A stretch of 64,000 nt of DNA from Escherichia coli. GTDB taxonomy: Bacteria; Pseudomonadota; Gammaproteobacteria; Enterobacterales; Enterobacteriaceae. Positions 1 through 46,587 of this stretch are shown piece after piece; positions within the stretch are counted from its first letter, which is position 1; the number at the start of each line of letters is the position of its first letter. The notes under the pieces are model-generated. The model was not told the DNA's origin. It saw only the letters and a program-made list of their open reading frames with translations, and searched no databases. The stretch is from NCBI RefSeq assembly GCF_044324785.1, contig NZ_CP172127.1, one strand, 5' to 3'. The position numbers and the translations under genes were made by a program.

Positions 1-2301
1 ATGGCCGTTAAAGCCTCCGGGCGTTTTGTCCCTCCGTCAGCATTTGCCGCAGGCACCGGTAAGGCGTTTACCGGTGCTTATGCATGGAACGCGCCACGCG
101 AGGCTGTCGGGCGCGAAAGACCCCTTACACGTGACGAGATGCGTCAGGTGCAAGGTGTTTTATCCACGATTAACCGCCTGCCTTACTTTTTGCGCTCGCT
201 GTTTACTTCACGCTATGACTACATCCGGCGCAATAAAAGCCCGGTGCACGGGTTTTATTTCCTCACATCCACTTTTCAGCGTCGTTTATGGCCGCGCATT
301 GAGCGTGTGAATCAGCGCCATGAAATGAACACCGACGCGTCGTTGCTGTTTCTGGCAGAGCGTGACCACTATGCGCGCCTGCCGGGAATGAATGACAAGG
401 AGCTGAAAAAGTTTGCTGCCCGTATCTCATCGCAGCTTTTCATGATGTATGAGGAACTCTGCGATGCCTGGGTGGATGCGCATGGCGAAAAAGAATCGCT
501 GTTTACGGATGAGGCGCAGGCACATCTGTATGGTCATGTTGCTGGCGCTGCACGTGCTTTCAATATTTCCCCGCTTTACTGGAAAAAATACCGTAAAGGG
601 CAGATGACCACGAGGCAGGCATATTCTGCCATTGCCCGCCTGTTTAACGATGAGTGGTGGACTCATCAGCTTAAAGGCCAGCGTATGCGCTGGCATGAGG
701 CGTTACTGATTGCTGTCGGGGAGGTCAATAAAGACCGTTCTCCTTATGCCAGTAAACATGCCATTCGTGATGTGCGTGCGCGCCGCCAGGCAAATCTGGA
801 ATTTCTTAAATCGTGTGACCTTGAAAACAAGGAAACCGGCGAGCGCATCGACCTTATCAGTAAGGTGATGGGCAGTATTTCTAATCCAGAAATTCGCCGG
901 ATGGAGCTGATGAACACCATCGCCGGTATTGAGCGTTACGCCGCCGCAGAGGGTGATGTAGGGATGTTTATCACGCTGACCGCGCCGTCAAAGTATCACC
1001 CGACACGTCAGGTCAGAAAAGGCGAAAGTAAAACCGTCCAGCTAAATCACGGCTGGAACGATGAGGCATTTAATCCAAAGGATGCGCAGCGTTATCTCTG
1101 CCGTATCTGGAGCCTGATGCGCACGGCATTCAAGGATAATGATTTACAGGCCTACGGTTTGCGTGTTGTTGAACCACACCACGACGGAACGCCGCACTGG
1201 CATATGATGCTTTTTTGTAATCCACGCCAGCGTAACCAGATTATTGAAATCATGCGTCGCTACGCGCTCAAAGAGGATGGCGACGAAAGAGGAGCTGCGC
1301 GAAACCGTTTTCAGGCAAAACACCTTAACCGGGGCGGTGCTGCGGGATATATCGCGAAATACATCTCAAAAAACATCGACGGCTATGCACTGGATGGTCA
1401 GCTCGATAATGATACCGGTAGACCGCTGAAAGACACAGCTGCGGCTGTTACCGCATGGGCGTCAACGTGGCGCATTCCGCAATTTAAAACGGTTGGTCTG
1501 CCGACAATGGGGGCTTACCGTGAACTACGCAAATTGCCTCGCGGCGTCAGCATTGCTGATGAGTTTGACGAGCGCGTCGAGGCTGCACGCGCCGCTGCAG
1601 ACAGTGGTGATTTTGCGTTGTATATCAGCGCGCAGGGCGGGGCAAATGTCCCGCGCGATTGCCAGACTGTCAGGGTCGCCCGTAGCCCGTCGGATGACGT
1701 TAACGAGTACGAGGAAGAAGTCGAGAGAGTGGTCGGCATTTACGCGCCGCATCTCGGCGCGCGTCATATTCATATCACCAGAACGACGGACTGGCGCATT
1801 GTTCCGAAAGTGCCGGTCGTTGAGCCTTTGACTTTAAAAAGCGGCATCGCCGCGCCTCGGAGTCCTGTCAATAACTGTGGAAAGCTCACCGGTGGTGATA
1901 CTTCGTTACCGGCTCCCACACCTTCTGAGCACGCCGCAGCAGTGCTTAATCTGGTTGATGACGGTGTTATTGAATGGAATGAACCGGAGGTCGTGAGGGC
2001 GCTCAGGGGCGCATTAAAACACGGCCTGAGAAGACCAAACCGTCAGCAAAGAAACGGAAGCCCGTTAAAACCGCATGAAATAGCGCCATCGGCCAGACTG
2101 ACCCGGTCGGAACGAATGCAAATTACCCGTATCCGCGTTGACCTTGCTCAGAACGGTATCAGGCCACAGCGATGGGAGCTTGAGGCGCTGGCGCGTGGTG
2201 CGATGGTGATATTCGATGATAAAAAATATAAGTATGTGGCAAGTAATGTCGATGAGTGGCAGGGTTTTAGTAATGAGTACTTCAGCAAAGAGCTCAAGTA
2301 A
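1..2301 (+). CDS. A: P2-type replication initiator, rolling-circle nicking endonuclease gpA (766 aa)
   Basis: ORF starts with ATG at position 1. HUH-type motif PHWHMML and tyrosine pair GYIAKYISK are visible in the translation. Colinear with the downstream P2-like gene set. Promoter lies outside the window. Confidence 0.9.
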   Translation: MAVKASGRFVPPSAFAAGTGKAFTGAYAWNAPREAVGRERPLTRDEMRQVQGVLSTINRLPYFLRSLFTSRYDYIRRNKSPVHGFYFLTSTFQRRLWPRIERVNQRHEMNTDASLLFLAERDHYARLPGMNDKELKKFAARISSQLFMMYEELCDAWVDAHGEKESLFTDEAQAHLYGHVAGAARAFNISPLYWKKYRKGQMTTRQAYSAIARLFNDEWWTHQLKGQRMRWHEALLIAVGEVNKDRSPYASKHAIRDVRARRQANLEFLKSCDLENKETGERIDLISKVMGSISNPEIRRMELMNTIAGIERYAAAEGDVGMFITLTAPSKYHPTRQVRKGESKTVQLNHGWNDEAFNPKDAQRYLCRIWSLMRTAFKDNDLQAYGLRVVEPHHDGTPHWHMMLFCNPRQRNQIIEIMRRYALKEDGDERGAARNRFQAKHLNRGGAAGYIAKYISKNIDGYALDGQLDNDTGRPLKDTAAAVTAWASTWRIPQFKTVGLPTMGAYRELRKLPRGVSIADEFDERVEAARAAADSGDFALYISAQGGANVPRDCQTVRVARSPSDDVNEYEEEVERVVGIYAPHLGARHIHITRTTDWRIVPKVPVVEPLTLKSGIAAPRSPVNNCGKLTGGDTSLPAPTPSEHAAAVLNLVDDGVIEWNEPEVVRALRGALKHGLRRPNRQQRNGSPLKPHEIAPSARLTRSERMQITRIRVDLAQNGIRPQRWELEALARGAMVIFDDKKYKYVASNVDEWQGFSNEYFSKELK

Positions 2302-2351
2302 TGGTAGAATTAAATATTGTTGTCTAAATATACATATATGGTTAACTGAAC

Positions 2352-3503
2352 ATGAATGTGGTTGATTTATACTCAGGGGTAGGTGGTTTAAGCTTGGGAG
2401 CATCACGGGCAGGCTTTAACTTGGTTGGTGCCGTTGAGTTGGATAAGCATGCAATATTTTCCCATGCTCTTAATTTCCCAAATTCAACACATTTACATAA
2501 AGATGTTAGCAAACTTTCTGCTCATGATATTCTAACAGCTTGTAATGTTAGTAATATTGATTGTGTCATCGGTGGACCACCTTGTCAGGGATTTAGTACA
2601 ATTGGTAAAGGGATGGCTAATGACGTCAGAAATGAATTGTATATTCATTTTTTTAGGTTGGTGAGCGAGTTATCACCTGTTTGTTTCTTGGCAGAGAATG
2701 TTCCTGGGATAATGAATGAAAAATATGATGCAGTTAGAGAAAAAGCATTCTCATTAGTAAAAGACCGATATGTAATATTGAGCCCAATAAAAGTGAATGC
2801 GTCTAATTATGGAGCTCCTACAACTAGAACTAGGATTTTTTTTATCGGATTCAAAAAGGAATTAGCTAATTGTTTAAAAGAATCTGATTTCTTTCCTGTG
2901 CAAGATATTGAGCAAACCTTAGTTAAAGATGCTTTATACGGTATTCCTCGTGTTATAAGAAAAGAATGGCAGCAAGAGGAACAAGGCTGGCGTGAAGTTA
3001 AGATGGATAGGCAAGGATATTTTTTTGATAGACTTTGGAGTAATGTTCCGAATAATGTTGGTGATCCGGAATCTTTAGAAAAATTAAAAAAAGGGTTGGT
3101 CTCCGGTTTCTTGGGAACAATACATACAGATGAGGTTATTAATAGATATAAAAAACTCTCTTTTGGCGAAACTGATAAAATTTCACGATCTCAGAGGTTA
3201 AATCCAAATGGTTTCTGTCCGACGCTAAGGGCTGGAACTGGCAGCGATAAGGGCAGTTATCAAGCAGTTAGGCCGATCCATCCAACGCAGGCTAGAGTTA
3301 TTACTCCACGTGAGGCTGCTCGATTACAAGGTTTTCCTGATTGGTTTAGGTTTCACCCTACTAAGTGGCATAGTTTCAGGCAAATCGGTAATAGCGTTAG
3401 CCCATTAGTAGCTGAAGCTATGCTATTACCGTTATATAAATTATGTCAGTTTTCTAAAGAAGAACTTTCGAATACCACGGAATTACTTTGTAATACTCAA
3501 TAA
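2352..3503 (+). CDS. DNA (cytosine-5)-methyltransferase (383 aa)
   Basis: Canonical C5-MTase motifs in order: motif I DLYSGVGG, motif IV GGPPCQGFS, motif VI FLAENVPG, motif VIII-like TTRTRIFFIG, motif X IGNSVSP. AT-rich relative to flanking phage genes. Starts 51 bp after the gpA stop. Confidence 0.85.
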   Translation: MNVVDLYSGVGGLSLGASRAGFNLVGAVELDKHAIFSHALNFPNSTHLHKDVSKLSAHDILTACNVSNIDCVIGGPPCQGFSTIGKGMANDVRNELYIHFFRLVSELSPVCFLAENVPGIMNEKYDAVREKAFSLVKDRYVILSPIKVNASNYGAPTTRTRIFFIGFKKELANCLKESDFFPVQDIEQTLVKDALYGIPRVIRKEWQQEEQGWREVKMDRQGYFFDRLWSNVPNNVGDPESLEKLKKGLVSGFLGTIHTDEVINRYKKLSFGETDKISRSQRLNPNGFCPTLRAGTGSDKGSYQAVRPIHPTQARVITPREAARLQGFPDWFRFHPTKWHSFRQIGNSVSPLVAEAMLLPLYKLCQFSKEELSNTTELLCNTQ

Positions 3504-3915
3504 AGTTTTTAAGGTTACTATTAGCCTCGGCTTCATCATCTCCAATGTAAAAGCCGAGGTCGTTGGTAATTTCTTCATGGTCTTTTGTAGGAAGTCGTTC
3601 CTCAATAAAGATTCTCTCACGTAAAGACATCGTGGGAACACTAATGTTTTTGACGGTGCCCCAGTCTCCAGAATAAAAGGGCCAAAAATTAATTCGAGAA
3701 TTTTGAAGGAAGCTATCTAATTGCATATCACTGTTTTCGAGAACAATGGCAGTAAAGGTAAGCATTTGCTGACCATCTTTGTAAATAAAATTACATAAAG
3801 GATGGATCATTATATCTGGTCTACCTGTTAATCCAATACTTATGGCACGTTGAGCTGCTTTTATTAAAAGGTGTGGGTACCTTTTAAAAGTGACATCATC
3901 AACAGTTAGATTCAC
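3454..3915 (-). CDS. Hypothetical protein (153 aa), third gene of GHKL-ATPase operon
   Basis: GTG start overlaps the stop of the upstream 177-aa ORF by 4 nt (GTGA). No recognisable motif. 3' end overlaps the MTase 3' end convergently by 50 bp. Confidence 0.55.
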   Translation of the reverse strand: MNLTVDDVTFKRYPHLLIKAAQRAISIGLTGRPDIMIHPLCNFIYKDGQQMLTFTAIVLENSDMQLDSFLQNSRINFWPFYSGDWGTVKNISVPTMSLRERIFIEERLPTKDHEEITNDLGFYIGDDEAEANSNLKNFIEYYKVIPWYSKVLL

Positions 3916-4445
3916 TGGGCAATAATCTTGAGTAAGTAAAGATTGTATTTTTTTAATCGAAAACGCCTAGGGTCTCTTTCTTGAAAATCTCTTCCTAAAG
4001 TTTCAGGAGTTGCATTTAAAGTTATTTTAAATATATCTTTTGGCTTTAACTTACTTACCAATTGAGCAATGTCATTCATTTGCTCATATATTTGGCTTGG
4101 TATGGCATAGTCAAGCCAAATTAGAGAAGGTGCAGCGAAGTCGCTTTGAGTAATAAATTCACTGCTACTTAAAGGTTCTTCTCCTAAATCAATACATGAT
4201 ATAGGTTTGTTAAATTTTTGTCGTTTATGAACGTTAGCATCTACCTCTAGAGAGATCATGTTATTGATTTTTAAAGCATTATGCAGTTGTTTGAAGTCTT
4301 CTAGAAAAGGGCCACCAAACCCGATATAAACATAATCGGATATGTTTACATAGTTGTTGAGTTTTCTGAGCAACTCAATGAATAGATTTCTTTCGACAGC
4401 TTTGTGTTGTCGAAGATGATAAGGAATACTTCCCCCAGTACTCAT
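3912..4445 (-). CDS. Hypothetical protein (177 aa), second gene of GHKL-ATPase operon
   Basis: ATG overlaps the stop of the 488-aa ORF by 4 nt (ATGA). Weak glycine-rich stretch YVYIGFGGPF could be a nucleotide- or SAM-binding loop, but no confident family assignment. Confidence 0.55.
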   Translation of the reverse strand: MSTGGSIPYHLRQHKAVERNLFIELLRKLNNYVNISDYVYIGFGGPFLEDFKQLHNALKINNMISLEVDANVHKRQKFNKPISCIDLGEEPLSSSEFITQSDFAAPSLIWLDYAIPSQIYEQMNDIAQLVSKLKPKDIFKITLNATPETLGRDFQERDPRRFRLKKYNLYLLKIIAQ

Positions 4446-5908
4446 TTTTTTGCCCTCTCTAAAAAATCTTCAAAGCAATAATTACCAATTTCTGTCGGAG
4501 GAACAGAATCATCATCGAAAATGAAAGTGGCAACAGTTTTTATCTCACTCAATCTTCTACTAAATTTTATTTGCTTTAAAGGGTCTGTTTCTTTAGGTAT
4601 TGGCAATGTTGGTTTGAAACTATTCCCACCAATGGATCTATGCACCCGAGACCATTTATCTTCAGGTACTATGCTATCTAGTTTGTCGTTTGTAAGAGGA
4701 ATTGTTTTAGATGTGGAACTAAACATTTGCTGGCGTTCTGGAGAGTTACTTTTCCATCTGTTAGTAAAATCTGTAAATATTTTCAAGCCTTCACGCATGA
4801 AATCTTTAGTAGCCAAATAGATATCAGAATTACCATCAATGCCTCTCTTGGTAGTAGTAATAGGTAATTTTTCAGCTTCATTAGATGTAAAAATAGCTAC
4901 GCCTGCAATTCCAACAAATTGTGTGTGATATTGTGGAACTCCTGCTTCACCCCATCCGGTAAGACGTGTCTTGTCCGCATGAACAACAACACGATCATTG
5001 CAGATAATAGTCCATCCGGCTTTCTCGGAAGTGTTACGTCCAGTAAGGAATGAATTTTCCTCATCTTCTGTCACAAAATCTCTATAGAATCCAACTGCGA
5101 TCTTTATTGAAACTCCATTAGTTTCACCTCTGTAAAAATAAGGCGTGATACCACCTTTTTTCGCTGACACAAGAGCTTCGGTATCGATAATTAATGATGT
5201 CAGATTTGGCTTGACTTCTATATCATTAATATAGACCTTGAAACCTTTATTAAGAATTAGGCTATAATGGTTTGAAACAGAATTGATTAATTTTTGTTGA
5301 AAATCACGATCAACTTTGAAATGGTTTTTTACATCGTCTCTGAGATCGTTAACTATAATTTTTACGCCCGTTGTTTTTAAATCGACATTACCACGTTCGA
5401 GATCTAGTTTCCAGTTTTTATCATTGGATAACCATTCTGGAGAAATTGTAACTTTAAATTCCTCGTCTTTTGTTTTACTTAATACTTGCGATGAAGTGCC
5501 CAACTTAAAAATAGCTCGCTTCATACCTATCCCATAAACACCAATGGTTGGGATATTATCTATGTCTCTTTCATTTGGTCTTCCCATTCGGAAAGCATAG
5601 CTTGTTGCTAAGCTTCCCGAAATTCCGCCACAATTATCTTCAATTGTAAAACCATCTTCATTAAAATTTATTTTTGAGTAAAAACCGTGGTATTTATTTT
5701 CTTCGTTTATTTCTTCATTCGATGATGAAATGGAACGAAGAGCGCCATCAAGACAGTTGTCTAATAAGTCAAGAATAGCATCTTGGAGTTCGATATCCCT
5801 GGTTAACATTTCTACAAAGAAACGTTTTGCAGGAAAAGCTTCGATGATATCGTTTGCCATAGTTATTTTAGTTCCATCTGTGTGATTACTTATAGATATG
5901 TTTACCAT
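4442..5908 (-). CDS. GHKL-superfamily (MutL/GyrB/MORC-like Bergerat fold) ATPase (488 aa)
   Basis: N-box AILDLLDNCLDGA, G1 box IEDNCGGISG and G2 box IGVYGIGMKRA occur in the expected order and spacing in the N-terminal ~130 residues. C-terminal ~350 residues unassigned. First gene of a 3-gene coupled operon. Confidence 0.7.
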   Translation of the reverse strand: MVNISISNHTDGTKITMANDIIEAFPAKRFFVEMLTRDIELQDAILDLLDNCLDGALRSISSSNEEINEENKYHGFYSKINFNEDGFTIEDNCGGISGSLATSYAFRMGRPNERDIDNIPTIGVYGIGMKRAIFKLGTSSQVLSKTKDEEFKVTISPEWLSNDKNWKLDLERGNVDLKTTGVKIIVNDLRDDVKNHFKVDRDFQQKLINSVSNHYSLILNKGFKVYINDIEVKPNLTSLIIDTEALVSAKKGGITPYFYRGETNGVSIKIAVGFYRDFVTEDEENSFLTGRNTSEKAGWTIICNDRVVVHADKTRLTGWGEAGVPQYHTQFVGIAGVAIFTSNEAEKLPITTTKRGIDGNSDIYLATKDFMREGLKIFTDFTNRWKSNSPERQQMFSSTSKTIPLTNDKLDSIVPEDKWSRVHRSIGGNSFKPTLPIPKETDPLKQIKFSRRLSEIKTVATFIFDDDSVPPTEIGNYCFEDFLERAKK

Positions 5909-6136
5909 AAAACAAGGTACAGATCATCGATGTTTAGCACAACATCTTGAGAGTTTCTTGGTAGCATGAGGGGGATTATGCCGCTTATTTTATGATTTTC
6001 AGCTTTGTGCTAATGCATCTAACTGGTGCATGAGTTTGCATTCGCTTTTATTTCAAAGCATGTGGGGGCGTGCTAGTGTTGGTAGAGCTCTGATTTCCTG
6101 ATGCAACTGCATTAAAACCGCCCCATGAAGCGGGCG

Positions 6137-6155
6137 GGCGAGGCGGGGAAAGCAC
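6137..6155. other. cos: P2-type cos site (19-nt cohesive end GGCGAGGCGGGGAAAGCAC)
   Basis: Exact 19-mer present in the GC-rich spacer between the cargo operon and the portal gene Q, where cos lies in P2. The P2 cohesive-end sequence is recalled from memory. Confidence 0.7.
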
Positions 6156-6297
6156 TGCGCGCTGGCGGTGGTGCTGATTTTATTTTTTCAGCGTCTCAGC
6201 GCGTCGTGACGGCGCTTAGTCTGCCCGTTGAGGCGTTGGTGTGTCTGCGGGGTGTTTTGTGCGGTGGTGAGCGTGTGAGGGCGTGATGACGGGGTGT

Positions 6298-6320
6298 AAA
6301 AAAGCCGCCCGCAGGCGGCG
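6298..6320 (-). terminator. Rho-independent terminator downstream of Q
   Basis: Minus-strand hairpin CGCCGCC-TGC-GGGCGGC followed by a T6 run, immediately after the Q stop codon. Confidence 0.65.
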
Positions 6321-6324
6321 ATGT

Positions 6325-7359
6325 TCAGCCGTTGTCAGTGTCCAGTGAGTAGTTTTTAAATCGGATGACCTCCTGACCGAGCCAGCCGTTTATCTCGCGG
6401 ATCCTGTCCTGTAACGGGATAAGCTCATTGCGGACAAAGACCTTTGCCACTTTCTCAATATCACCCAGCGACCCGACGTTCTCCGGCTTGCCGCCCATCA
6501 ACTGAAAGGGGATGCGGTGCGCGTCCAGCAGGTCTGCGGCGCTGGCTTTTTTGATATTAAAAAAATCGTCTTTCGTCGCCACTTCACTGAGCGGGATAAT
6601 TTTAATGCCGTCGGCTTTTCCCTGCGGGGCGTAGAGAAACAGATTTTTAAAGTTGTTGCGGCCTTTCGACTTCACCATGTTTTCGCGGAGCATTTCGATA
6701 TCGTTGCGATCCTGCACGGCGTCGGTGACGTACATGATGTATCCGGCATGTGCGCCGTTTTCGTAATACTTGCGGCGGAACAGCGTGGCCGACTCATTCA
6801 GCCAGGCAGAGTTAAGGGCGCTGAGATATTCCGGCAGGCCGTACAGCTCCTGATTGATATCCGGCTCCAGCAGGTGAAATACGGAGCCGGGCGCGAAGGC
6901 TGTCGGTTCGTTGAAGGACGGCACCCACCAGTAAACATCCTCTTCCACCCCACGGCGGGTATATTTTGCCGGTGAGGTTTCCAGTCTGATGACCTTACCG
7001 GTGGTGCTGTAACGCTTTTCCAGAAACGCATTGCCGAACACCAGAAAATCCAGCACAAAGCGGCTGAAATCCTGCTGGGAAAGCCACGGATGCGGGATAA
7101 ATGTCGAGGCCAGAATATTGCGTTTGACGTAAATCGGTGAGCTGTGATGCACGGCAGCACGCAGACTTTTTGCCAGCCCGGTAAAGCTGACCGGCGGCTC
7201 ATACCATCTGCCGTTACTGATGCATTCGACGTAATCCAGAATGTCACGGCGGTCGAGTACCGGCACCGGCTCGCCAAAGGTGAATGCCTCCATTTTCGGG
7301 GCGCTGGCAGTCATTTTTTTTGCCGCAGGTTGCGGTGTTTTCCCTTTTTTCTTGCTCAT
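6325..7359 (-). CDS. Q: Portal protein gpQ (344 aa)
   Basis: Size, position next to cos and terminase, and sequence are typical of the P2 portal protein. Confidence 0.9.
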   Translation of the reverse strand: MSKKKGKTPQPAAKKMTASAPKMEAFTFGEPVPVLDRRDILDYVECISNGRWYEPPVSFTGLAKSLRAAVHHSSPIYVKRNILASTFIPHPWLSQQDFSRFVLDFLVFGNAFLEKRYSTTGKVIRLETSPAKYTRRGVEEDVYWWVPSFNEPTAFAPGSVFHLLEPDINQELYGLPEYLSALNSAWLNESATLFRRKYYENGAHAGYIMYVTDAVQDRNDIEMLRENMVKSKGRNNFKNLFLYAPQGKADGIKIIPLSEVATKDDFFNIKKASAADLLDAHRIPFQLMGGKPENVGSLGDIEKVAKVFVRNELIPLQDRIREINGWLGQEVIRFKNYSLDTDNG

Positions 7360-9131
7360 CAGTAAAACTCCAGAATGGTGGATGTCAGCGGGGTGCTGAT
7401 ACCGGCGGTGAGTGGCTCATTTAACAGGGCGTGCATGGTCGCCCAGGCGAGGTCGGCGTGGCTGGCTTCCTCGCTGCGGCTGGCTTCATAGGTGGCGCTG
7501 CGTCCGCTGCTGGTCATGGTCTTGCGGATAGCCATAAACGAGCTGGTGATGTCGGTGGCGCTGACGTCATATTCCAGACAGCCACGGCGGATAACGTCTT
7601 TTGCCTTGAGCACCATTGCGGTTTTCATTTCCGGCGTGTAGCGGATATCACGCGCGGCGGGATAGAACGAGCGCACGAGCTGGAACACGCCGACACCGAG
7701 GCCGGTGGCATCAATACCGATGTATTCGACGTTGTATTTTTCGGTGAGTTTGCGGATGGATTCAGCTTGGGTGGCAAAGTCCATGCCTTTCCACTGGTGA
7801 CGCTCAAGTATTCTGAATTTGCCACCGGCCACCACCGGCGGTGCCAGTACCACGCATCCGGCGCTGTCGCCACGGTGTGACGGGTCGTAACCAATCCATA
7901 CCGGGCGGGAGCCGAACGGATTGGCGGCAAACGGCGCATAGTCTTCCCATTCTTCCAGCGTGTCGACCATGCAGCGTTGCAGCTCCTCGAACGGGAACAC
8001 CGATGCCTTGTCGTCAACAAATTCACACATGAACAGGTTTTTAAAATCGTCGGCGCTGTTTTCGCGTTTGAGCTGCTCAATGTCGAACAGCGTGCAGCCG
8101 CCTTTCAGGGCATCCTCAATGGTGACAATCTGCCGCCACTGGCCGTCCGCACAGAGAAGCCCACCGGCAAGGGCGTTATGACTGACGTCGATTTCCACAC
8201 GTTCGGCGGCGCTGGCGCGTCCCCGGTTGAACAGTTCACCTGACCAGAACGGGTAGGCGTCGTGCGCCAGCGTGGACGGGGTGGAGAAATAGGTCGAGCG
8301 CAGGTGACTCTGTGAGGCCATACCTGATGCCACCTTACGCAGTACCTGAAAATTCGGGATCCAGAAAATCTCATCGACGTACAGGTCGCCGTTATGGCTC
8401 TGCGCGGTGTTGGAGTTTGTGCCGAGAAAAATCAGTTTTGCGCCGTTATTGCCCAGGACAATCGGGTCACCGGTCAGGTCAACGTCAACCAGACGGGCAA
8501 AGGCGATGATGTATTCACGGAATACATACGCCTGCGTTTTACTGGCCGACAGAAAAATCTGGTTATGGCCGGTTTTCAGGGCGCGCAGCAGCGCCTCGCG
8601 GGAAAAATAAAACGTTGCGCCAATCTGGCGGGATTTCAGGATATCGCGGATGCGGTGCTCAAGCCCGGCGCGATACCAGTGCAACTGATAGTCGAAAGAC
8701 TGCTCAAAGAAAATCTGCTCCAGCTTTTCGATGGCCTCGTCACTGAAAAAATTCTTTTTCGGTTTGCGACGCCCGCCTTTGTTGCGGTTAGCGACGTTCG
8801 GATTAAGGTCTGCCTCGTTGCCGGTCTGACTGTAGCGGTTTATCCGTGCCAGTCGTTCAATCTGGCGTCCGAGCAGGTCAATTTCCTTGAAGTCACCACC
8901 GGTTTTCTGCGGTTTGATGATGAGCTGGGTCAGTCGCGCTTCCAGACTCATTTCGACACGGCTGATGGGGGCAACGCTGTCCCAGCCGTCGCGCTGTTTC
9001 CAGCTCTGCACCGTCGGGCGTTTCATCTGCAACATGGCGGCAATCTGCGGCACGGAAAACCCCTGCCAGTACAGCAGCGCCGCCTGACGACGCGGGTCGT
9101 GTAAAAGAGTGGTGTCTGTGGTGATGGTCAT
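7359..9131 (-). CDS. P: Terminase large (ATPase) subunit gpP (590 aa)
   Basis: ORF track gives 7359..9161. Start trimmed to the internal Met (MTITTDTTLL) that matches the P2 gpP N-terminus and length. Confidence 0.9.
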   Translation of the reverse strand: MTITTDTTLLHDPRRQAALLYWQGFSVPQIAAMLQMKRPTVQSWKQRDGWDSVAPISRVEMSLEARLTQLIIKPQKTGGDFKEIDLLGRQIERLARINRYSQTGNEADLNPNVANRNKGGRRKPKKNFFSDEAIEKLEQIFFEQSFDYQLHWYRAGLEHRIRDILKSRQIGATFYFSREALLRALKTGHNQIFLSASKTQAYVFREYIIAFARLVDVDLTGDPIVLGNNGAKLIFLGTNSNTAQSHNGDLYVDEIFWIPNFQVLRKVASGMASQSHLRSTYFSTPSTLAHDAYPFWSGELFNRGRASAAERVEIDVSHNALAGGLLCADGQWRQIVTIEDALKGGCTLFDIEQLKRENSADDFKNLFMCEFVDDKASVFPFEELQRCMVDTLEEWEDYAPFAANPFGSRPVWIGYDPSHRGDSAGCVVLAPPVVAGGKFRILERHQWKGMDFATQAESIRKLTEKYNVEYIGIDATGLGVGVFQLVRSFYPAARDIRYTPEMKTAMVLKAKDVIRRGCLEYDVSATDITSSFMAIRKTMTSSGRSATYEASRSEEASHADLAWATMHALLNEPLTAGISTPLTSTILEFY

Positions 9132-9304
9132 GAATACCTCGCCGTGATGAATACACGGCAAGGCTACTGAGTCGCGCCCTGCGATTCGCTAAGGTGCTGT
9201 TGTGTCAGTGATAAGCCATCCGGGACTGATGGCGGAGGATGCGCATCGTCGGGAAACTGATGCCGACATGTGACTCCTCTAATCACTATTCAGGACTCCT
9301 GACA
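9132..9304. promoter_or_regulatory. Divergent late promoter region between P (leftward) and O (rightward)
   Basis: Intergenic spacer between divergently oriented late operons. In P2 this spacer holds the Ogr-dependent late promoters. Individual promoter elements not resolved by eye. Confidence 0.5.
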
Positions 9305-10159
9305 ATGGCAAAAAAAGTCTCAAAATTCTTTCGTATCGGCGTTGAGGGTGACACCTGTGACGGGCGTGTCATCAGTGCGCAGGATATTCAGGAAATGGCC
9401 GAAACCTTTGACCCGCGTGTCTATGGTTGCCGCATTAACCTGGAACATCTGCGCGGCATCCTGCCTGACGGCATTTTTAAACGTTATGGCGATGTGGCCG
9501 AACTGAAGGCCGAAAAGATTGACGATGATTCGGCGCTGAAAGGCAAATGGGCGCTGTTTGCGAAAATCACCCCGACCGATGACCTTATCGCGATGAACAA
9601 GGCCGCGCAGAAGGTCTACACCTCAATGGAAATTCAGCCGAACTTTGCCAACACCGGCAAATGTTATCTGGTGGGGCTGGCCGTCACCGATGACCCGGCA
9701 AGCCTCGGCACGGAATACCTGGAATTCTGCCGCACGGCAAAACACAACCCTCTGAACCGCTTCAAATTAAGCCCTGAAAACCTGATTTCAGTGGCAACGC
9801 CTGTTGAGCTGGAATTTGAAGACCTGCCTGAAACCGTGTTCACCGCCCTGACCGAAAAGGTGAAGTCCATTTTTGGCCGCAAACAGGCCAGCGATGATGC
9901 CCGTCTGAATGACGTGCATGAAGCGGTGACCGCTGTTGCTGAACATGTGCAGGAAAAACTGAGCGCCACTGAGCAGCGCCTCGCGGAGATGGAAACCGCC
10001 TTTTCCGCACTTAAGCAGGAGGTGACTGACAGGGCGGATGAAACCAGCCAGGCATTCACCCGCCTGAAAAACAGTCTCGACCACACCGAAAGTCTGACCC
10101 AGCAGCGCCGCAGCAAGGCCACCGGCGGTGGCGGTGACGCCCTGATGACGAACTGCTGA
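9305..10159 (+). CDS. O: Capsid scaffolding protein gpO (284 aa)
   Basis: ORF track starts at 9239. Trimmed to MAKKVSKFF, which matches the P2 gpO start and length. Confidence 0.9.
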   Translation: MAKKVSKFFRIGVEGDTCDGRVISAQDIQEMAETFDPRVYGCRINLEHLRGILPDGIFKRYGDVAELKAEKIDDDSALKGKWALFAKITPTDDLIAMNKAAQKVYTSMEIQPNFANTGKCYLVGLAVTDDPASLGTEYLEFCRTAKHNPLNRFKLSPENLISVATPVELEFEDLPETVFTALTEKVKSIFGRKQASDDARLNDVHEAVTAVAEHVQEKLSATEQRLAEMETAFSALKQEVTDRADETSQAFTRLKNSLDHTESLTQQRRSKATGGGGDALMTNC

Positions 10160-10216
10160 CCGGCATCAGTCATCCGGGAAAACCTTCACGATTAACCCTT
10201 AATTTCAGGAAAAACT

Positions 10217-11290
10217 ATGCGCCAGGAAACCCGCTTTAAATTTAATGCCTACCTGTCCCGTGTTGCCGAACTGAACGGCATCGACGCCGGTGATGTGTCG
10301 AAAAAATTCACCGTTGAACCGTCGGTCACCCAGACCCTGATGAACACCATGCAGGAGTCCTCTGACTTTCTGACCCGCATCAACATTGTGCCGGTCAGCG
10401 AAATGAAAGGGGAAAAAATTGGCATCGGTGTCACCGGCTCCATCGCCAGCACCACCGACACCGCCGGTGGCACCGAGCGTCAGCCGAAGGACTTCTCGAA
10501 GCTGGCGTCAAACAAGTACGAATGCGACCAGATTAACTTCGATTTTTATATCCGCTACAAAACGCTTGACCTGTGGGCGCGTTATCAGGATTTCCAGCTC
10601 CGTGTCCGTAACGCCATTATCAAACGCCAGTCCCTTGATTTCATCATGGCCGGTTTTAACGGCGTGAAGCGTGCCGAAACCTCTGACCGCAGCAGCAATC
10701 CGATGTTGCAGGATGTGGCGGTCGGCTGGCTGCAGAAATACCGCAATGAAGCACCGGCGCGCGTGATGAGCAAGGTCACTGACGAGGAAGGTCACACGAC
10801 CTCTGAGGTCATCCGCGTGGGTAAGGGCGGTGATTATGCCAGCCTTGATGCACTGGTGATGGATGCGACCAACAACCTGATCGAACCGTGGTATCAGGAA
10901 GACCCTGACCTTGTGGTGATAGTGGGACGTCAGTTACTGGCGGACAAGTATTTCCCCATCGTTAACAAGGAGCAGGACAACAGCGAAATGCTGGCCGCTG
11001 ACGTCATCATCAGCCAGAAACGCATCGGCAACCTGCCAGCGGTACGCGTCCCGTACTTCCCGGCGGATGCGATGCTCATCACGAAGCTGGAAAACCTGTC
11101 CATCTACTACATGGATGACAGCCATCGCCGCGTGATTGAGGAAAACCCGAAACTCGACCGCGTGGAGAACTACGAGTCAATGAACATTGATTACGTGGTG
11201 GAGGACTACGCCGCCGGTTGTCTGGTGGAAAAAATTAAGGTCGGTGATTTCTCCACACCGGCTAAAGCGACCGCAGAGCCGGGAGCGTAA
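10217..11290 (+). CDS. N: Major capsid protein gpN (357 aa)
   Basis: Length and position in the O-N-M-L head module. Confidence 0.9.
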   Translation: MRQETRFKFNAYLSRVAELNGIDAGDVSKKFTVEPSVTQTLMNTMQESSDFLTRINIVPVSEMKGEKIGIGVTGSIASTTDTAGGTERQPKDFSKLASNKYECDQINFDFYIRYKTLDLWARYQDFQLRVRNAIIKRQSLDFIMAGFNGVKRAETSDRSSNPMLQDVAVGWLQKYRNEAPARVMSKVTDEEGHTTSEVIRVGKGGDYASLDALVMDATNNLIEPWYQEDPDLVVIVGRQLLADKYFPIVNKEQDNSEMLAADVIISQKRIGNLPAVRVPYFPADAMLITKLENLSIYYMDDSHRRVIEENPKLDRVENYESMNIDYVVEDYAAGCLVEKIKVGDFSTPAKATAEPGA

Positions 11291-11293
11291 CCG

Positions 11294-12037
11294 ATGACGA
11301 GTCCCGCACAGCGCCACATGATGCGGGTCTCGGCAGCGATGACCGCGCAGCGGGAAGCCGCCCCGCTGCGACATGCAACTGTCTATGAGCAGATGCTGGT
11401 CAAGCTGGCCGCAGACCAGCGCACACTGAAAGCGATTTATTCAAAAGAGCTGAAGGCCGCGAAAAAACGCGAACTGCTGCCGTTCTGGTTGCCGTGGGTG
11501 AACGGCGTGCTGGAGCAGGGCAAAGGTGCACAGGATGACATTCTGATGACGGTCATGCTGTGGCGTCTGGATACCGGCGATATTGCCGGTGCGCTGGAGA
11601 TTGCCCGTTATGCCCTGAAGTACGGTCTGACCATGCCGGGTAAACACCGCCGCACCCCGCCGTACATGTTCACCGAGGAGGTGGCGCTTGCGGCCATGCG
11701 CGCTCACGCTGCCGGTGAGTCTGTGGATACCCGCCTGCTGACGGACACCCTTGAACTGACCGCCACGGCTGACATGCCTGATGAAGTGCGCGCAAAGCTG
11801 CACAAAATCACCGGTCTGTTTCTGCGTGACGCTGGTGATGCCGCAGGGGCGCTGGCGCACCTGCAACGTGCGACACAGCTCGACTGTCAGGCAGGCGTCA
11901 AAAAAGAGATTGAACGACTGGAGCGGGAACTGAAACCGAAGCCGGAGCCACAGCCAAAAGCGGCCACCCGCGCCCCGCGTAAGACCCGGAGTGCGACACC
12001 GGCAAAACGTGGACGCCCGAAAAAGAAAGCCAGTTAA
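11294..12037 (+). CDS. M: Terminase small (endonuclease) subunit gpM (247 aa)
   Basis: Position after N. Basic C-terminal tail. Confidence 0.9.
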   Translation: MTSPAQRHMMRVSAAMTAQREAAPLRHATVYEQMLVKLAADQRTLKAIYSKELKAAKKRELLPFWLPWVNGVLEQGKGAQDDILMTVMLWRLDTGDIAGALEIARYALKYGLTMPGKHRRTPPYMFTEEVALAAMRAHAAGESVDTRLLTDTLELTATADMPDEVRAKLHKITGLFLRDAGDAAGALAHLQRATQLDCQAGVKKEIERLERELKPKPEPQPKAATRAPRKTRSATPAKRGRPKKKAS

Positions 12038-12136
12038 CAACCGAATGCGCCCCGCGCCAGGGCGGCACGCCGGTCAGTGAGGGTGAATCACCTGACACTG
12101 CACCGGCGTCCACCGCCCGACTTTTCAGAGGTAGTC

Positions 12137-12646
12137 ATGATGACGCTGATTATTCCGCGAAAGGAGGCTCCCGTGTCCGGTGAGGGTACGGTGGTCATCC
12201 CGCAACCGGCAGGCGACGAGCCGGTGATTAAAAACACGTTCTTTTTTCCCGATATCGACCCGAAGCGCGTCCGGGAACGTATGCGCCTTGAGCAGACCGT
12301 CGCCCCCGCCCGTCTGCGAGAGGCCATCAAGTCAGGCATGGCTGAAACGAATGCGGAGCTGTACGAGTACCGCGAACAGAAAATTGCTGCCGGTTTTACG
12401 CGTCTGGTGGACGTCCCGGCGGACGACATCGACGGTGAAAGCATCAAAGTTTTTTATTACGAGCGCGCCGTGTGTGCGATGGCGACCGCGTCGCTTTATG
12501 AACGTTATCGCGGTGTGGATGCCAGTGCGAAAGGCGACAAGAAGGCCGACAGCATTGACAGCACCATTGATGAACTGTGGCGGGATATGCGCTGGGCGGT
12601 GGCGCGTATCCAGGACAAGCCACGCTGCATCGTGAGTCAAATCTGA
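12137..12646 (+). CDS. L: Head completion protein gpL (169 aa)
   Basis: ORF track starts at 12077. Trimmed to MMTLIIPRKE, consistent with P2 gpL length. Confidence 0.85.
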   Translation: MMTLIIPRKEAPVSGEGTVVIPQPAGDEPVIKNTFFFPDIDPKRVRERMRLEQTVAPARLREAIKSGMAETNAELYEYREQKIAAGFTRLVDVPADDIDGESIKVFYYERAVCAMATASLYERYRGVDASAKGDKKADSIDSTIDELWRDMRWAVARIQDKPRCIVSQI

Positions 12647-12849
12647 TGAAGACCTTTGCGCTACAGGGCGACACGCTCGACGCCATTTGTGTCCGGTATT
12701 ACGGGCGCACTGAGGGCGTGGTCGAGGCCGTGCTCGCCGCAAATCCGGGACTGGCTGAACTGGGTGCGGTGCTGCCGCACGGCACCGCCGTCGAACTGCC
12801 CGACGTTCAGACCGCGCCCGTGGCTGAAACTGTCAATCTGTGGGAGTAA
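12646..12849 (+). CDS. X: Tail protein gpX (67 aa)
   Basis: ATG overlaps the L stop (ATGA). Translation MKTFALQGDTLDAICVRYYGR. Confidence 0.85.
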   Translation: MKTFALQGDTLDAICVRYYGRTEGVVEAVLAANPGLAELGAVLPHGTAVELPDVQTAPVAETVNLWE

Positions 12850-12852
12850 CAC

Positions 12853-13134
12853 ATGACAGCAGAAGAAAAAAGCGTCCTGTCGCTTTTCATGATTGGGGTG
12901 CTGATTGTTGTCGGCAAGGTGCTTGCCGGTGGTGAACCCATTACCCCGCGTCTGTTTATCGGGCGCATGTTGCTCGGTGGTTTTGTCTCGATGGTTGCCG
13001 GTGTTGTTCTGGTGCAGTTCCCTGACCTGTCACTGCCTGCGGTGTGCGGCATCGGCTCCATGCTGGGTATCGCCGGTTATCAGGTGATTGAGATTGCCAT
13101 TCAGCGCCGCTTTAAGGGCAGGGGGAAACAGTAA
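12853..13134 (+). CDS. Y: Holin gpY (93 aa)
   Basis: Small hydrophobic protein with transmembrane segments, immediately upstream of the endolysin. Confidence 0.85.
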   Translation: MTAEEKSVLSLFMIGVLIVVGKVLAGGEPITPRLFIGRMLLGGFVSMVAGVVLVQFPDLSLPAVCGIGSMLGIAGYQVIEIAIQRRFKGRGKQ

Positions 13135-13631
13135 TGCAGGTAATTAACACGCATCAGAATATCGCCGCCTTTCTCGACATGCTGGCCGTGTCCGAAGGGA
13201 CGGCGAATCATCCGCTGACGAAAAACCGGGGCTATGACGTGATAGTCACCGGACTGGACGGAAAGCCGGAAATTTTCACCGACTACAGTGACCACCCGTT
13301 CGCACATGGCCGACCGGCGAAGGTGTTTAACCGTCGCGGTGAAAAATCAACGGCCTCCGGTCGCTATCAGCAGCTTTACCTGTTCTGGCCGCATTACCGC
13401 AAACAGCTTGCCCTGCCGGATTTCAGTCCGTTGTCACAGGACAGACTCGCCATTCAGTTGATCCGCGAACGCGGTGCACTGGATGACATCCGGGCGGGAC
13501 GTATTGAGCGCGCCATTTCACGCTGTCGCAATATCTGGGCGTCCCTGCCGGGTGCCGGTTACGGTCAGCGTGAGCATTCACTGGAAAAACTGGTCACCGT
13601 CTGGCGTACCGCTGGCGGCGTACCGGCTTAA
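13134..13631 (+). CDS. K: Endolysin (lysozyme-like) gpK (165 aa)
   Basis: Position in the lysis cassette, size, and start overlapping the holin stop. Confidence 0.9.
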   Translation: MQVINTHQNIAAFLDMLAVSEGTANHPLTKNRGYDVIVTGLDGKPEIFTDYSDHPFAHGRPAKVFNRRGEKSTASGRYQQLYLFWPHYRKQLALPDFSPLSQDRLAIQLIRERGALDDIRAGRIERAISRCRNIWASLPGAGYGQREHSLEKLVTVWRTAGGVPA

Positions 13632-13645
13632 ACGGAGTAAACACC

Positions 13646-14071
13646 ATGAAGAAATTATCCCTTTCACTGATGCTGAACGTGTCGCTGGCGCTGATGCTGG
13701 CACTGTCCCTGATTTACCCGCAGAGCGTGGCCGTCAGTTTTGTCGCTGCCTGGGCGATTCTGGCGACGGTTATCTGTGTGGTTGCCGGTGGTGTCGGCGT
13801 TTATGCCACTGAGTATGTGCTGGAACGCTACGGGCGGGAGCTGCCGCCGGAGTCGCTGGCCGTGAAGATTGTCATGTCGCTGTTTTTGCAGCCAGTGCCG
13901 TGGTGCAGACGGGCGGCGGCTCTGGTGGTGATGGTGGCGACATTTATCTCGCTGGTCGCTGCCGGGTGGATTTTTACCGCGCTGATTTATCTCGTGGCGT
14001 CGGTGTTCTTCCGGCTGATACGTACGGCCTGCCGTCAACGTCTTGAGGGGCGGGAACCATGTCAAAGCTGA
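13646..14071 (+). CDS. lysA: Lysis timing protein LysA (141 aa, membrane)
   Basis: Hydrophobic ORF following K, as in P2. Confidence 0.8.
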   Translation: MKKLSLSLMLNVSLALMLALSLIYPQSVAVSFVAAWAILATVICVVAGGVGVYATEYVLERYGRELPPESLAVKIVMSLFLQPVPWCRRAAALVVMVATFISLVAAGWIFTALIYLVASVFFRLIRTACRQRLEGREPCQS

Positions 14072-14484
14072 TGATTGTGATGGTTGTGTTGTTATCGCTG
14101 GCGGTGGCGGGGCTGTTTCTGGCGAAGCATGAAAACGCCAGCCTGCGCGCCTCGCTGGACAGGGTGAACAACGTCGCCAGTGAACAGCAGACGACCATCA
14201 CCATGCTGAAAAATCAGCTTCATGTTGCCCTCACCAGGGCAGACAAAAACGAGCTGGCGCAGGTGGCACTGCGTCAGGAACTGGAGAACGCCGCGAAGCG
14301 TGAAGCACAGCGCGAGAAAACCATCACGAGGTTACTTAATGAAAACGAAGATTTTCGCCGCTGGTACGGCGCTGACCTGCCTGATGCTGTGCGCCGGTTG
14401 CACCAGCGCCCCGCCTGCACCGACGCCAGTGATTGTCCACAACGCCTGCCCGAAAGTGAGCCTTTGCCCGATGCCGGGCAGTGA
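14059..14484 (+). CDS. lysB: LysB, Rz-like inner-membrane spanin (141 aa)
   Basis: N-terminal transmembrane segment followed by a coiled-coil-like region. Position after lysA. Confidence 0.8.
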   Translation: MSKLMIVMVVLLSLAVAGLFLAKHENASLRASLDRVNNVASEQQTTITMLKNQLHVALTRADKNELAQVALRQELENAAKREAQREKTITRLLNENEDFRRWYGADLPDAVRRLHQRPACTDASDCPQRLPESEPLPDAGQ

Positions 14485-14629
14485 CCCGCAGACGAACGGT
14501 GATTTAAGTGCCGATATCCGGCAGCTTGAGAACGCGCTGGCACGCTGTGCCAGCCAGGTAAAAATGATTAAACACTGTCAGGACGAAAACGATGCTCAAA
14601 CCCGACAGCCTGCGCAGGGCGCTGACTGA
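14339..14629 (+). CDS. lysC: LysC, Rz1-like outer-membrane lipoprotein spanin (96 aa), embedded out of frame in lysB
   Basis: Internal start MKTKIFAAGTALTCLMLCAGC with lipobox LCAGC. Lies in the +1 frame overlapping the 3' part of lysB and the start of R. Confidence 0.7.
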   Translation: MKTKIFAAGTALTCLMLCAGCTSAPPAPTPVIVHNACPKVSLCPMPGSDPQTNGDLSADIRQLENALARCASQVKMIKHCQDENDAQTRQPAQGAD

Positions 14630-15059
14630 TGCCGTCACGGTGCTGAAAACCAGTCCCGAGATGTTGCGGATATTCGTGGATAACGGGAGTATTGCCTCCA
14701 CGCTGGCGACGTCGTTGTCATTCGAAAAGCGTTACACGCTCAATGTGATTGTGACCGACTTTACCGGTGATTTTGACCTGCTCATCGTGCCGGTGCTGGC
14801 GTGGCTGCGGGAAAATCAGCCCGACATCATGACCACCGACGAAGGTCAGAAAAAAGGTTTCACGTTTTATGCAGACATCAACAATGACAGCAGCTTTGAT
14901 ATCAGCATCAGCCTGATGCTGACCGAGCGCACGCTGGTCAGTGAGGTGGACGGCGCGCTGCATGTGAAGAATATCCCGGAACCCACGCCGCCGGAGCCGG
15001 CCACCCGCCCGATGGAGCTTTATATCAATGGCGAACTGGTGAGCAAGTGGGATGAATGA
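14592..15059 (+). CDS. R: Tail completion protein gpR (155 aa)
   Basis: Position and size. Confidence 0.85.
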   Translation: MLKPDSLRRALTDAVTVLKTSPEMLRIFVDNGSIASTLATSLSFEKRYTLNVIVTDFTGDFDLLIVPVLAWLRENQPDIMTTDEGQKKGFTFYADINNDSSFDISISLMLTERTLVSEVDGALHVKNIPEPTPPEPATRPMELYINGELVSKWDE

Positions 15060-15504
15060 GTTTAAGCGTTTTGAAGACCGGCTGACCGGACTGACTGAGT
15101 CGCTGTCACCGTCAGGGCGTCGGCGACTGAGCGCCGAACTGGCGAAACGTCTGCGGCAGAGTCAGCAGCGTCGGGTGATGGCACAGAAAGCCCCGGATGG
15201 CACACCCTATGCGCCACGCCAGCAGCAGAGCGCCAGAAAAAAGACCGGTCGTGTTAAGCGAAAAATGTTTGCGAAACTTATCACCAGTCGTTTTTTGCAT
15301 ATCCGCGCCAGCCCGGAACAGGCATCAATGGAATTTTACGGCGGGAAGTCGCCGAAAATCGCCAGTGTGCATCAGTTCGGTCTGTCGGAAGAAACCCGGA
15401 AAGACGGTAAGAAAATTGATTATCCGGCGCGTCCTCTGCTCGGCTTTACCGGTGAGGATGTGCAGATGATTGAAGAGATTATCCTGGCTCACCTTGAGCG
15501 TTAG
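15052..15504 (+). CDS. S: Tail completion protein gpS (150 aa)
   Basis: Position and size. Overlaps the R stop. Confidence 0.85.
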   Translation: MNEFKRFEDRLTGLTESLSPSGRRRLSAELAKRLRQSQQRRVMAQKAPDGTPYAPRQQQSARKKTGRVKRKMFAKLITSRFLHIRASPEQASMEFYGGKSPKIASVHQFGLSEETRKDGKKIDYPARPLLGFTGEDVQMIEEIILAHLER

Positions 15505-16131
15505 TTTTATCCAGGCAGAGGCTGATGCGCAATTAAACATTGAGCGGCCATGCTGGTCGCTCAATGTTTAGAGGTTTATGAGTGATTTTTATTTGATGCT
15601 TTGTATTCTAAAACCTTCTTATTGGCGTAAAAGAATTTTGTATATGACAGGAATATAACCAGACCTGAAGTGAAATAGACGAGGGATAGTATTAATAATG
15701 CTTTTTTGTGACTGTTATTATCTTTAATCTCCTGGCTTAACCATTCGGAGTCCTCCTCGTTTAGCTGTAAGAGCTTATTGCAGGCGATCTCAGGAAGTGT
15801 GTCTTTTATAAATACGTTTTGCAGTCTCTTGCAATCGGCAAGGCTATAAGTTTTATTAAATTCAACTGCTTTATTTTTGAAGGATAAAAGAACTTTGTCA
15901 CTATAAACATAGTACATCATGTTTTTATATGGTATGCCTATGGCATCCCTTACTATAACGGATTGTACGTTGTGTATGTAACATGCGAGGAGAATGTAAA
16001 AAATACTGGCCAGAATTACAATTATTGTTTTAATTATGTGTAGACTGGCCCCCTGAATCTCCAGACAACCAATATCACTTAAATAAGTGATAGTCTTAAT
16101 ACTAGTTTTTAGACTAGTCATTGGAGAGCAG

Positions 16132-46363: not shown

Positions 46364-46587
46364 CGTTAAGAGTTTCTCTTCCTGAAACGTTTCGCGGAAT
46401 GATACTAGTGTAGCCAGCCAATAAGGGAGAAAAATGGAGGAATTATGAAACACTGTCGGGAATCGTCTGAATGACGGGCACATTTGCGAGCACGCATCCA
46501 GTAATAACACATGAAACTATTTTATCTACGCGTTAGCGATAGACTGCTTGCATGGCGAAAGGAGGTAAGCCGACGATTTCAGCGGGA

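Follow-up and report, generated by a model that had tools for sequence, protein, structure and literature searches.

A 64,000-nucleotide (nt) stretch of Escherichia coli DNA (RefSeq assembly GCF_044324785.1, contig NZ_CP172127.1), here referred to as the window, carries in a P2-like prophage, between replication gene A and the cos site, a cassette of three genes for a C5-cytosine DNA methyltransferase (MTase), a MORC-like GHKL ATPase and a methyltransferase-fold protein of the family PF20553 (Methyltransf_35), which we call MT35. We conclude that the cassette is probably a new, nuclease-free and methylation-linked immune module, carried as cargo in the P2 gpA-cos anti-phage hotspot, and we put the probability of this reading at roughly 55%. 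For a role in defence as such our estimate is slightly higher, and the specific mechanism outlined below is offered tentatively. The anatomy of the cassette and the conservation of the ATPase-MT35 pair can be held with high confidence. From comparisons of sequences, this pair is a constant, co-evolving core that attaches to methylation systems, which are either a solitary, exchangeable C5-MTase on mobile elements or a class-1 DISARM operon.

The three genes and their place in the prophage

On its left side the cassette is bounded by P2 gene A (positions 1-2301, plus strand), a 766-amino acid (aa) open reading frame (ORF) annotated as replication endonuclease in the E. coli genomes EC77 and EC05. 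The right boundary is the 19-mer GGCGAGGCGGGGAAAGCAC, found as an exact match at positions 6137-6155 (plus strand), with 0.02 matches expected by chance; we take this 19-mer to be the P2 cos cohesive-end sequence. The portal gene Q follows on the minus strand (6325-7359, 344 aa; annotated as phage portal protein in EC77 and EC05). Between about 2300 and about 6070 the G+C content is 33-41%, as compared to 51-58% in the flanks on either side. The stretch between gene A and cos was identified as cargo of the gpA-cos slot because other P2-like phages have in common with it only the approximately 200 bp beside cos.

The gpA-gpQ (gpA-cos) region of P2-like prophages is a hotspot of anti-phage systems, which houses old, tin and further defence genes (Rousset 2022, PMC9122126), and the window carries variable DNA at this very place, between gene A and cos/Q. 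A first-pass annotation of the window had described an AT-rich block in the P2 cargo hotspot between gene A and cos, and both the composition and the location are confirmed by the G+C contrast, by the coordinates of gene A and cos and by the study cited above. The four ORFs that it listed are also present, at 2352-3503 (plus strand, 383 aa), 3454-3915 (minus strand, 153 aa), 3912-4445 (minus strand, 177 aa) and 4442-5908 (minus strand, 488 aa).

The plus-strand gene (2352-3503) encodes an intact C5-MTase of 383 aa, as had been proposed, and represents the exchangeable methylase partner of the module. It was matched by TIGR00675 with 168.3 bits (cutoff 100.65), by the PADLOC profile MTase_II at 7.9e-95 and, over residues 1-365, by the cytosine-specific methyltransferase 3G7U in the PDB at 9.9e-157; 3G7U is presumably an E. 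coli prophage-encoded enzyme. The translation contains GGPPCQGFS, ENV, TRTRIFF, REAARLQGFPD and GNSVSP, which we take to be the catalytic motifs of C5-MTases, and with the PCQ, ENV, QxRxR and GN motifs the protein belongs to the PF00145/TIGR00675 family. The gene converges with that of MT35, and the two overlap tail to tail by 50 nt (3454-3503). A 50-nt overlap of the annotated genes is also present in E. coli strain 7/2, and in convergent loci from IMG/VR the two frames, taken from stop to stop, have tail-to-tail overlaps of 34-44 nt. The overlap at the 3' ends suggests antisense or transcriptional-interference coupling between the two transcription units.

On the minus strand, the first-pass annotation had seen an operon of three genes, in which the ATPase was followed by two partners of unknown function and both junctions had a 4-nt start/stop overlap. 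Instead, the 177-aa ORF (3912-4445, N-terminal half) and the 153-aa ORF (3454-3915, C-terminal half) are halves of a single frameshifted gene, MT35 (3454-4445, 330 aa if intact), because both match one PHROG family of 328 positions, of which they cover 1-168 and 175-328, respectively, and because intact relatives read 330 aa. The cassette is present in two complete E. coli genomes, EC77, which is identical but for one gap, and EC05, which is 99.7% identical, and homologous DNA in both encodes one 330-aa protein (WP_021517197.1, annotated as O-methyltransferase). A three-way alignment locates a 1-nt deletion at 3948-3954, where the window has T7 on the plus strand (A7 in the coding sense) as compared to eight in EC77 and EC05; both the GTG "start" and the 4-nt overlap seen at 3912-3915 therefore result from the frameshift. 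The other overlap, between the ATPase stop and the MT35 start at 4442-4445, is genuine and conserved in homologs, and MT35 is translationally coupled to the ATPase. The ATPase thus has one partner, which is broken in the window. In the annotation, the two small ORFs should be merged into one frameshifted gene, and the "O-methyltransferase" and the "ATP-binding protein" at this locus should be regarded as one unit.

The deletion is the sole indel in approximately 31 kb of near-identical prophage DNA, in a comparison of the window with EC77 over 50 kb, and only three homopolymers of at least 8 nt occur in these 31 kb. The A7 run may be a residual homopolymer sequencing error; if it is not, the copy of the module in the window would be inactive apart from the methylase. 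An independent frameshift in MT35 (A6 to A7, at a different site) was observed in another P2-like prophage (IMG/VR locus L053, 6300-6320). Both known breaks fall in poly-A runs, which could be sequencing errors or slippage-prone sites. A programmed frameshift or transcriptional slippage was judged unlikely, since the intact relatives read straight through A8 and the break in L053 lies in another A-run.

The family PF20553, named "Methyltransf_35, putative O-methyltransferase", matches the intact EC77 protein of 330 aa at 1.7e-84 over residues 3-328, and the window copy as two halves only. The predicted structure of MT35 (mean local confidence score, pLDDT, 90.9) has a class-I Rossmann S-adenosylmethionine-methyltransferase fold of the Trm1/RsmD-like type, including the cofactor loop. 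At least 97% of 108 sequences keep residues G44, E49 and D50 in this loop as well as W110 and D112, which follow strand 4, and this degree of conservation argues for a working active site. The motif W-x-D-(Y/F) after strand 4 may correspond to the DPPY motif of amino-methyltransferases, which it resembles. No support for the "O-" in the family name was found in the sequence or fold data on MT35.

The third gene, on the minus strand, encodes the ATPase. Its longest ORF extends from 4442 to 5908 (488 aa), and the start at 5861 (4442-5861, 472 aa), which is the one annotated in RefSeq, is more likely to be correct, as it also gives the better fit in the family alignment. The only Pfam match is HATPase_c_3. 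In the predicted fold, which is closest to MORC3 and MORC2, the GHKL domain is followed by an S5-fold transducer domain and by an extra C-terminal region of approximately 125 residues in which no fold was recognised. The MORC/MutL-like identity given in the first-pass annotation thus agrees with the fold match; in PDB sequence and profile searches the match to MORC3 was marginal (E 0.37), with nothing else significant beyond it for the ATPase or MT35. The Bergerat-fold motifs I-III (DLLDNCLDG, DNCGGI and GVYGIGMKR) are essentially invariant in 105 distinct sequences, and D31, N35, D75, G78, G79, G107, G110, G112, K114 and K338 are conserved in at least 97% of the sequences. We refer to the protein as MORC-like or paraMORC-type, a name that leaves aside the MORC-specific signature motif by which MORC proteins proper are separated from paraMORCs (Iyer et al. 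2008).

A conserved ATPase-MT35 pair with exchangeable methylases

The conservation of the cassette was assessed in three sets of loci. Twelve loci were sampled by exact-protein look-up plus one phage record; the sources included Serratia, Aeromonas, Pseudomonas syringae, Vibrio cholerae, Burkholderia, Yersinia, Massilia, three distant metagenomic relatives and the Pf inovirus PfAC20 (28% identity). A scan of the viral database IMG/VR gave 39 loci, and a scan of one genome per species gave 80 loci from Proteobacteria, Cyanobacteria, Bacillota, Planctomycetota, Acidobacteria, Verrucomicrobia, Chlorobi and others. The gene for the ATPase is adjacent to that for MT35 in 129/129 related loci with sequence reaching upstream of MT35. 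By set, the two genes are neighbors in all twelve sampled loci, where they overlap at stop and start, in 38/38 viral loci with upstream sequence and in 80/80 genome loci. A C5-MTase was found nearby in 12/12 sampled loci (PF00145, within three genes), in 38/39 viral loci and in 46/80 genome loci. Co-occurrence as a unit, which the first-pass annotation had named as a check of its prediction, was thus observed in the sampled, viral and genome loci. The carriers include the P2 hotspot (22 IMG/VR loci, between gpA and gpQ, and strain 7/2), a lambdoid prophage, PfAC20, Tn7-like elements and integrase islands.

MT35 was recovered as a single full-length hit in 118/119 scanned loci. This bears on the explanation that the cassette is decaying cargo, a pseudogene remnant that has no current function in the window strain. 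The frameshift in MT35, the second, independent homopolymer frameshift in L053 and an IS2 insertion in the same prophage fit such decay, which however would concern the window copy alone. Outside MT35's deletion the cassette matches the intact copy in EC77 at 100% identity, dozens of positions hardly vary from phylum to phylum, and the indel itself may be an error of homopolymer sequencing. We therefore consider decay very improbable.

The family is widespread. A search with the MT35 profile among representatives of clusters at 50% identity gave 1,997 hits at E<=0.001, and among the 150 matches listed the hits are mostly 315-350 aa long. Matches were detected in 221/5426 complete genomes of E. 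coli, of which two are near-identical and 219 represent an allele with 60-80% nucleotide identity. One carrier of this allele, strain 7/2, was inspected; its gpA-gpQ site likewise holds the trio, and the tail-to-tail overlap is identical.

We also compared pairwise identities over eight diverse loci. The identities of the ATPase and MT35 are correlated (r=0.80), in contrast to those of the MTase with either of the two (r=-0.16 and -0.19), and thus the ATPase and MT35 form a constant unit, with the C5-MTase as a frequent but swappable partner. The MTases of the eight loci fall into at least four interchangeable subgroups, and the methylase at the Massilia locus is that of a NotI-type restriction-modification (R-M) system. 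A Vsr endonuclease or an HhH-GPD glycosylase adjoins the trio in some loci, and HNH in some. In addition, a second, larger GHKL paralog (574-610 aa, 26% identical to the window ATPase over GHKL and S5) flanks the C5 methylase in Vibrio cholerae and Serratia (L007, 9256-11088; L003, 8269-9993) and in approximately ten other loci. The C-terminal region of this paralog matches PADLOC profiles for PD-Lambda-5_A.

These neighborhoods are relevant for the question of whether the cassette is a classical or Type III-like R-M system, in which the pair would hide an unrecognised nuclease and the C5-MTase would serve self-protection or target recognition. The first-pass annotation had favored an R-M-like or modification-sensing mechanism. 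Consistent with R-M, the methylase gene forms a transcription unit of its own that converges on the pair, an arrangement found in many such systems, some loci add HNH, Vsr or the second GHKL protein with its PD-Lambda-5_A-matching region, and GHKL paraMORCs have been predicted to be R-M components (Iyer et al. 2008; PMC2292703). However, the residues conserved in the C-terminal regions of the ATPase and MT35 show no PD-(D/E)xK, HNH or PLD pattern, the methylase subfamily changes independently of the pair, which a sequence-specific restriction arm would not tolerate, and some pairs have no methylase in cis. The part of the earlier interpretation that concerns an uncharacterised, methylation-linked GHKL module in a defence hotspot is largely supported, but the strict analogy with R-M is weakened, because there is no nuclease fold, the C5-MTase does not co-evolve with the pair and pairs without a nearby C5-MTase exist. 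The last two points argue against strict R-M logic, and we consider an R-M system of this kind unlikely.

The connection to DISARM came from loci with another type of methylase. In the only viral locus without a C5 methylase (L056), the pair (4601-6981) has DrmMI (1786 bits) on one side and DrmA (1700 bits) on the other, both belonging to a class-1 DISARM system. Likewise, the pair lies between BLAST matches to DrmMI and DrmA in 24 of the 80 genome loci (among L095-L132), and a 25th genome locus of this type, L126, has a match to DrmA only, because it starts too close to the pair. The DISARM-embedded relatives are approximately 30% identical to the pair in the window. The PADLOC models for DISARM do not cover the two embedded proteins, no literature that links DISARM to a GHKL ATPase was found, and the pair is in no published definition of DISARM that we found.

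The class-1 DISARM system (DrmD, DrmMI, DrmA, DrmB and DrmC) resembles the cassette in that it marks self by methylation and recognises unmethylated DNA with a dispensable nuclease, and in that relatives of the pair are located between DrmMI and DrmA elsewhere. It differs in that the window has no DrmA, DrmB, DrmC or DrmD and that its methylase is a small C5 enzyme. The cassette is not itself DISARM: it consists of three genes only, the core genes DrmA-DrmB-DrmC are missing, and the ATPase and MT35 match no PADLOC Drm model.

The embedding in DISARM argues against a purely modifying role of the pair and also against one in repair. According to the latter explanation, the pair would be a maintenance or repair accessory, in which the MutL-like ATPase and its partner handle lesions related to 5-methylcytosine (5mC), such as T:G mismatches or MTase-DNA adducts, comparable to the stimulation of Vsr by MutL. 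The strong association with C5-MTases is as expected for such a function, and so is the finding that some loci have Vsr or an HhH-GPD glycosylase next to the trio. Yet the methylase with which the clade embedded in DISARM is paired modifies adenine at N6 and gives rise to no deamination mismatch, the methyltransferase-fold partner has no obvious role in repair, and the pair would be redundant where Vsr is present. We regard a repair function as highly unlikely.

Known systems, proposed mechanism and alternatives

No named and characterised system matches the cassette in the PADLOC, NCBIfam and PDB sequence searches or in the literature, in agreement with the first-pass annotation. PADLOC gave no match to the non-MTase proteins even at E<=10, and the searches against PHROGs gave only uncharacterised families for them. 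The sole NCBIfam hit of these proteins was MzaB with 14.6 bits (cutoff 850); membership in MZA was rejected, as the score is below the cutoff and reflects only the shared GHKL and S5 ancestry. Literature searches on PF20553/Methyltransf_35, GHKL with O-methyltransferase, paraMORC and MORC-like anti-phage systems returned no characterisation, none of the defence catalogues searched names the module, and no experiment was found. Classical Type II R-M was rejected, since there is no cognate restriction endonuclease and the MTase identities are uncorrelated with those of the pair, as were Hma, BREX and Shedu/paraMORC3, for which defining genes or profile matches are lacking.

The nearest named candidate is Hma (helicase, m5C methyltransferase and ATPase; PADLOC, Payne 2021), which likewise combines an m5C methylase with an ATPase in a module of three genes, is frequent in defence contexts and has an undemonstrated mechanism. 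The cassette has a methyltransferase-fold protein in place of the helicase, and Hma was rejected since there is no helicase ORF between gene A and cos and the ATPase has no match among the PADLOC models at E<=10. BREX is similar in combining a methyltransferase with an ATPase, in self-marking and in phage exclusion without a recognised nuclease; it differs in that no homologs of PglZ, BrxC, BrxL or PglX were detected in the cassette with PADLOC and in that the ATPase is of the GHKL type rather than AAA+/P-loop. The Dcm-Vsr-MutL pathway of very-short-patch repair also links a cytosine methylase to a MutL-family ATPase, and Vsr is present in some related loci, but the window lacks Vsr, its ATPase resembles MORC and not MutL, and the partner has a methyltransferase fold. 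The eukaryotic silencing ATPases MORC2, MORC3 and SMCHD1 dimerise and use ATP to clamp or compact DNA when invading elements are silenced in connection with methylation. The window ATPase differs from them in that it has no CW, coiled-coil or hinge domains, the sequence similarity is marginal, as mentioned above, and a bacterial operon partner takes the place of chromatin readers.

Closest to the cassette in the literature are the paraMORC GHKL ATPases, which Iyer, Abhiman and Aravind (2008; PMC2292703) predicted in R-M neighborhoods with cytosine methylases, Vsr and HNH, sometimes with a second MORC-type GHKL protein. The first-pass annotation had alluded to a bioinformatic prediction of a MutL/MORC-like ATPase in an R-M context, and the 2008 paper makes such a prediction. 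As in the window, the paraMORCs have a GHKL and S5 module with a distinct C-terminal extension. They differ in that the account is a prediction only, that no methyltransferase-fold partner was found in the text searched, and that the ATPase in the window has Asp and not Glu as the general base. Judged by the description there, the window ATPase probably corresponds to "paraMORC1". The cassette has also been catalogued before: Rousset 2022 lists it only as an arrangement of the P2 hotspot, its proteins are absent from the supplementary sequences searched, including the table "Unknown systems" (file 7), and it was apparently included without a test. Methylation-linked systems that contain paraMORCs are thus already predicted; the new elements are the unreported methyltransferase-fold partner, the unreported link to class-1 DISARM and the lack of an effector nuclease.

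In the mechanism that we tentatively propose, the partner methylase would mark the resident DNA. The MORC-like ATPase would dimerise upon binding of ATP and clamp or scan DNA, by analogy with eukaryotic MORCs and MutL, and MT35 would act as a catalytic or base-flipping subunit that reads the methylation status or adds a second methyl mark. Unmarked invading DNA would be interfered with without a dedicated nuclease, in a manner similar to BREX or DISARM. The defence role, the DNA substrate, the clamp behavior and the methylation read-out are the parts of this scheme that we infer. It is conceivable, if doubtful, that the pair is more generally an unrecognised, nuclease-free epigenetic immune effector, which plugs into solitary C5 methylases and class-1 DISARM and clamps unmarked DNA to silence or modify it. 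If so, it would be a bacterial counterpart, and possibly a forerunner, of the methylation-linked silencing by eukaryotic MORCs, and a missing component of many DISARM systems.

Several observations weigh against an immune module. The sources searched hold no phenotype data for it, and neither a nuclease or helicase domain nor any other effector domain was detected in the ATPase and MT35 with PADLOC, Pfam, NCBIfam or fold matches. Several of the closest folds to MT35 are, by their PDB descriptions, RNA base methyltransferases and not DNA enzymes, and the MT35 copy in the window is frameshifted. In the ATPase family, Asp (D31) is always found at the position of the usual GHKL general-base Glu, and ATP turnover may therefore be slow; the two positions are equated by an alignment to what we take to be motif I of MutL. 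Finally, the pair has neither a C5-MTase nor DISARM within 7 kb in approximately 10 of the 80 genome loci, which means that a methylase in cis is no requirement for the pair and that the pair is not obviously toxic alone. Four of these stand-alone loci are cyanobacterial, and the two for which neighbors were checked adjoin NDH-1 genes, L077 on both sides and L075 on one side, with a nonribosomal peptide synthetase gene on the other. In searches of the checked neighbors with PADLOC and NCBIfam for another partner, housekeeping genes only were found, and no methylase or defence gene was detected within 7 kb of the pair in L075 and L077.

An alternative is a pure DNA-modification or anti-restriction module, to which we give a minor but appreciable probability. 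Here, both methyltransferases would modify the DNA of the element and the host, the MORC-like clamp would target MT35 or make it processive, and there would be no restriction arm; an example is a second mark, placed at 5mC sites or close to them, which would protect the DNA against restriction enzymes, among them the 5mC-dependent ones of Type IV. Two methyltransferase-fold proteins without a nuclease, the residues at the motif-I and motif-IV-like positions of MT35, whose conservation suggests real catalysis, and carriage on phages, transposons and islands that move between hosts all agree with this explanation, as does the exchangeable C5-MTase, since a pair that can work downstream of any cytosine methylase should allow such exchange. 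On the other hand, an insertion into class-1 DISARM, which already has its own methylase, better suits an immune role, the location is the P2 slot of old, tin and other defence genes, stand-alone pairs have no C5-MTase nearby, and the closest folds to MT35 are those of RNA methyltransferases.

If the cassette is an immune module, it would show how a MORC-type ATPase works together with DNA methylation in bacteria, a link so far inferred from gene neighborhoods (in 2008) that underlies ideas on the origin of MORC silencing in eukaryotes. It would also provide a tractable system of three genes in E. coli for nuclease-free, methylation-dependent defence, a question that it shares with BREX and DISARM.

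Other observations in the prophage and the window

All 38 substitutions relative to EC77 in the first 16 kb fall within positions 48-1819 of the window, in gene A, and positions 1820-16041 are identical to EC77 but for the 1-nt deletion in MT35. The cluster of substitutions beside the cargo slot looks like a recombination tract in this comparison. The window starts exactly at the ATG of the prophage gene A, as does the RefSeq record of EC05 (NZ_CM169495), and in several other E. coli chromosomes the cos-proximal match lies approximately 5.6 kb from the first base. Those assemblies may have been rotated to begin at the prophage replication gene.

At 16042-17371, the window has an insertion of 1.33 kb that is not present in the otherwise near-identical prophage of EC77. 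A 301-aa ORF in this insertion (16455-17360) was identified as the IS2 transposase TnpB, with 706.5 bits against a cutoff of 597. When the coordinates are mapped onto EC77, the element interrupts the homolog of EC77 WP_021517190.1, a hypothetical gene that has the baseplate gene V on one side and the gene for virion morphogenesis on the other and thus lies at a further cargo position of P2.

A unit of approximately 330 bp is repeated in tandem at 46480-47410, as seen from off-diagonal BLAST hits, and the array differs between the window and EC77. The EC77 counterpart is annotated with ibsA and two further type I toxin genes of the Ibs family.

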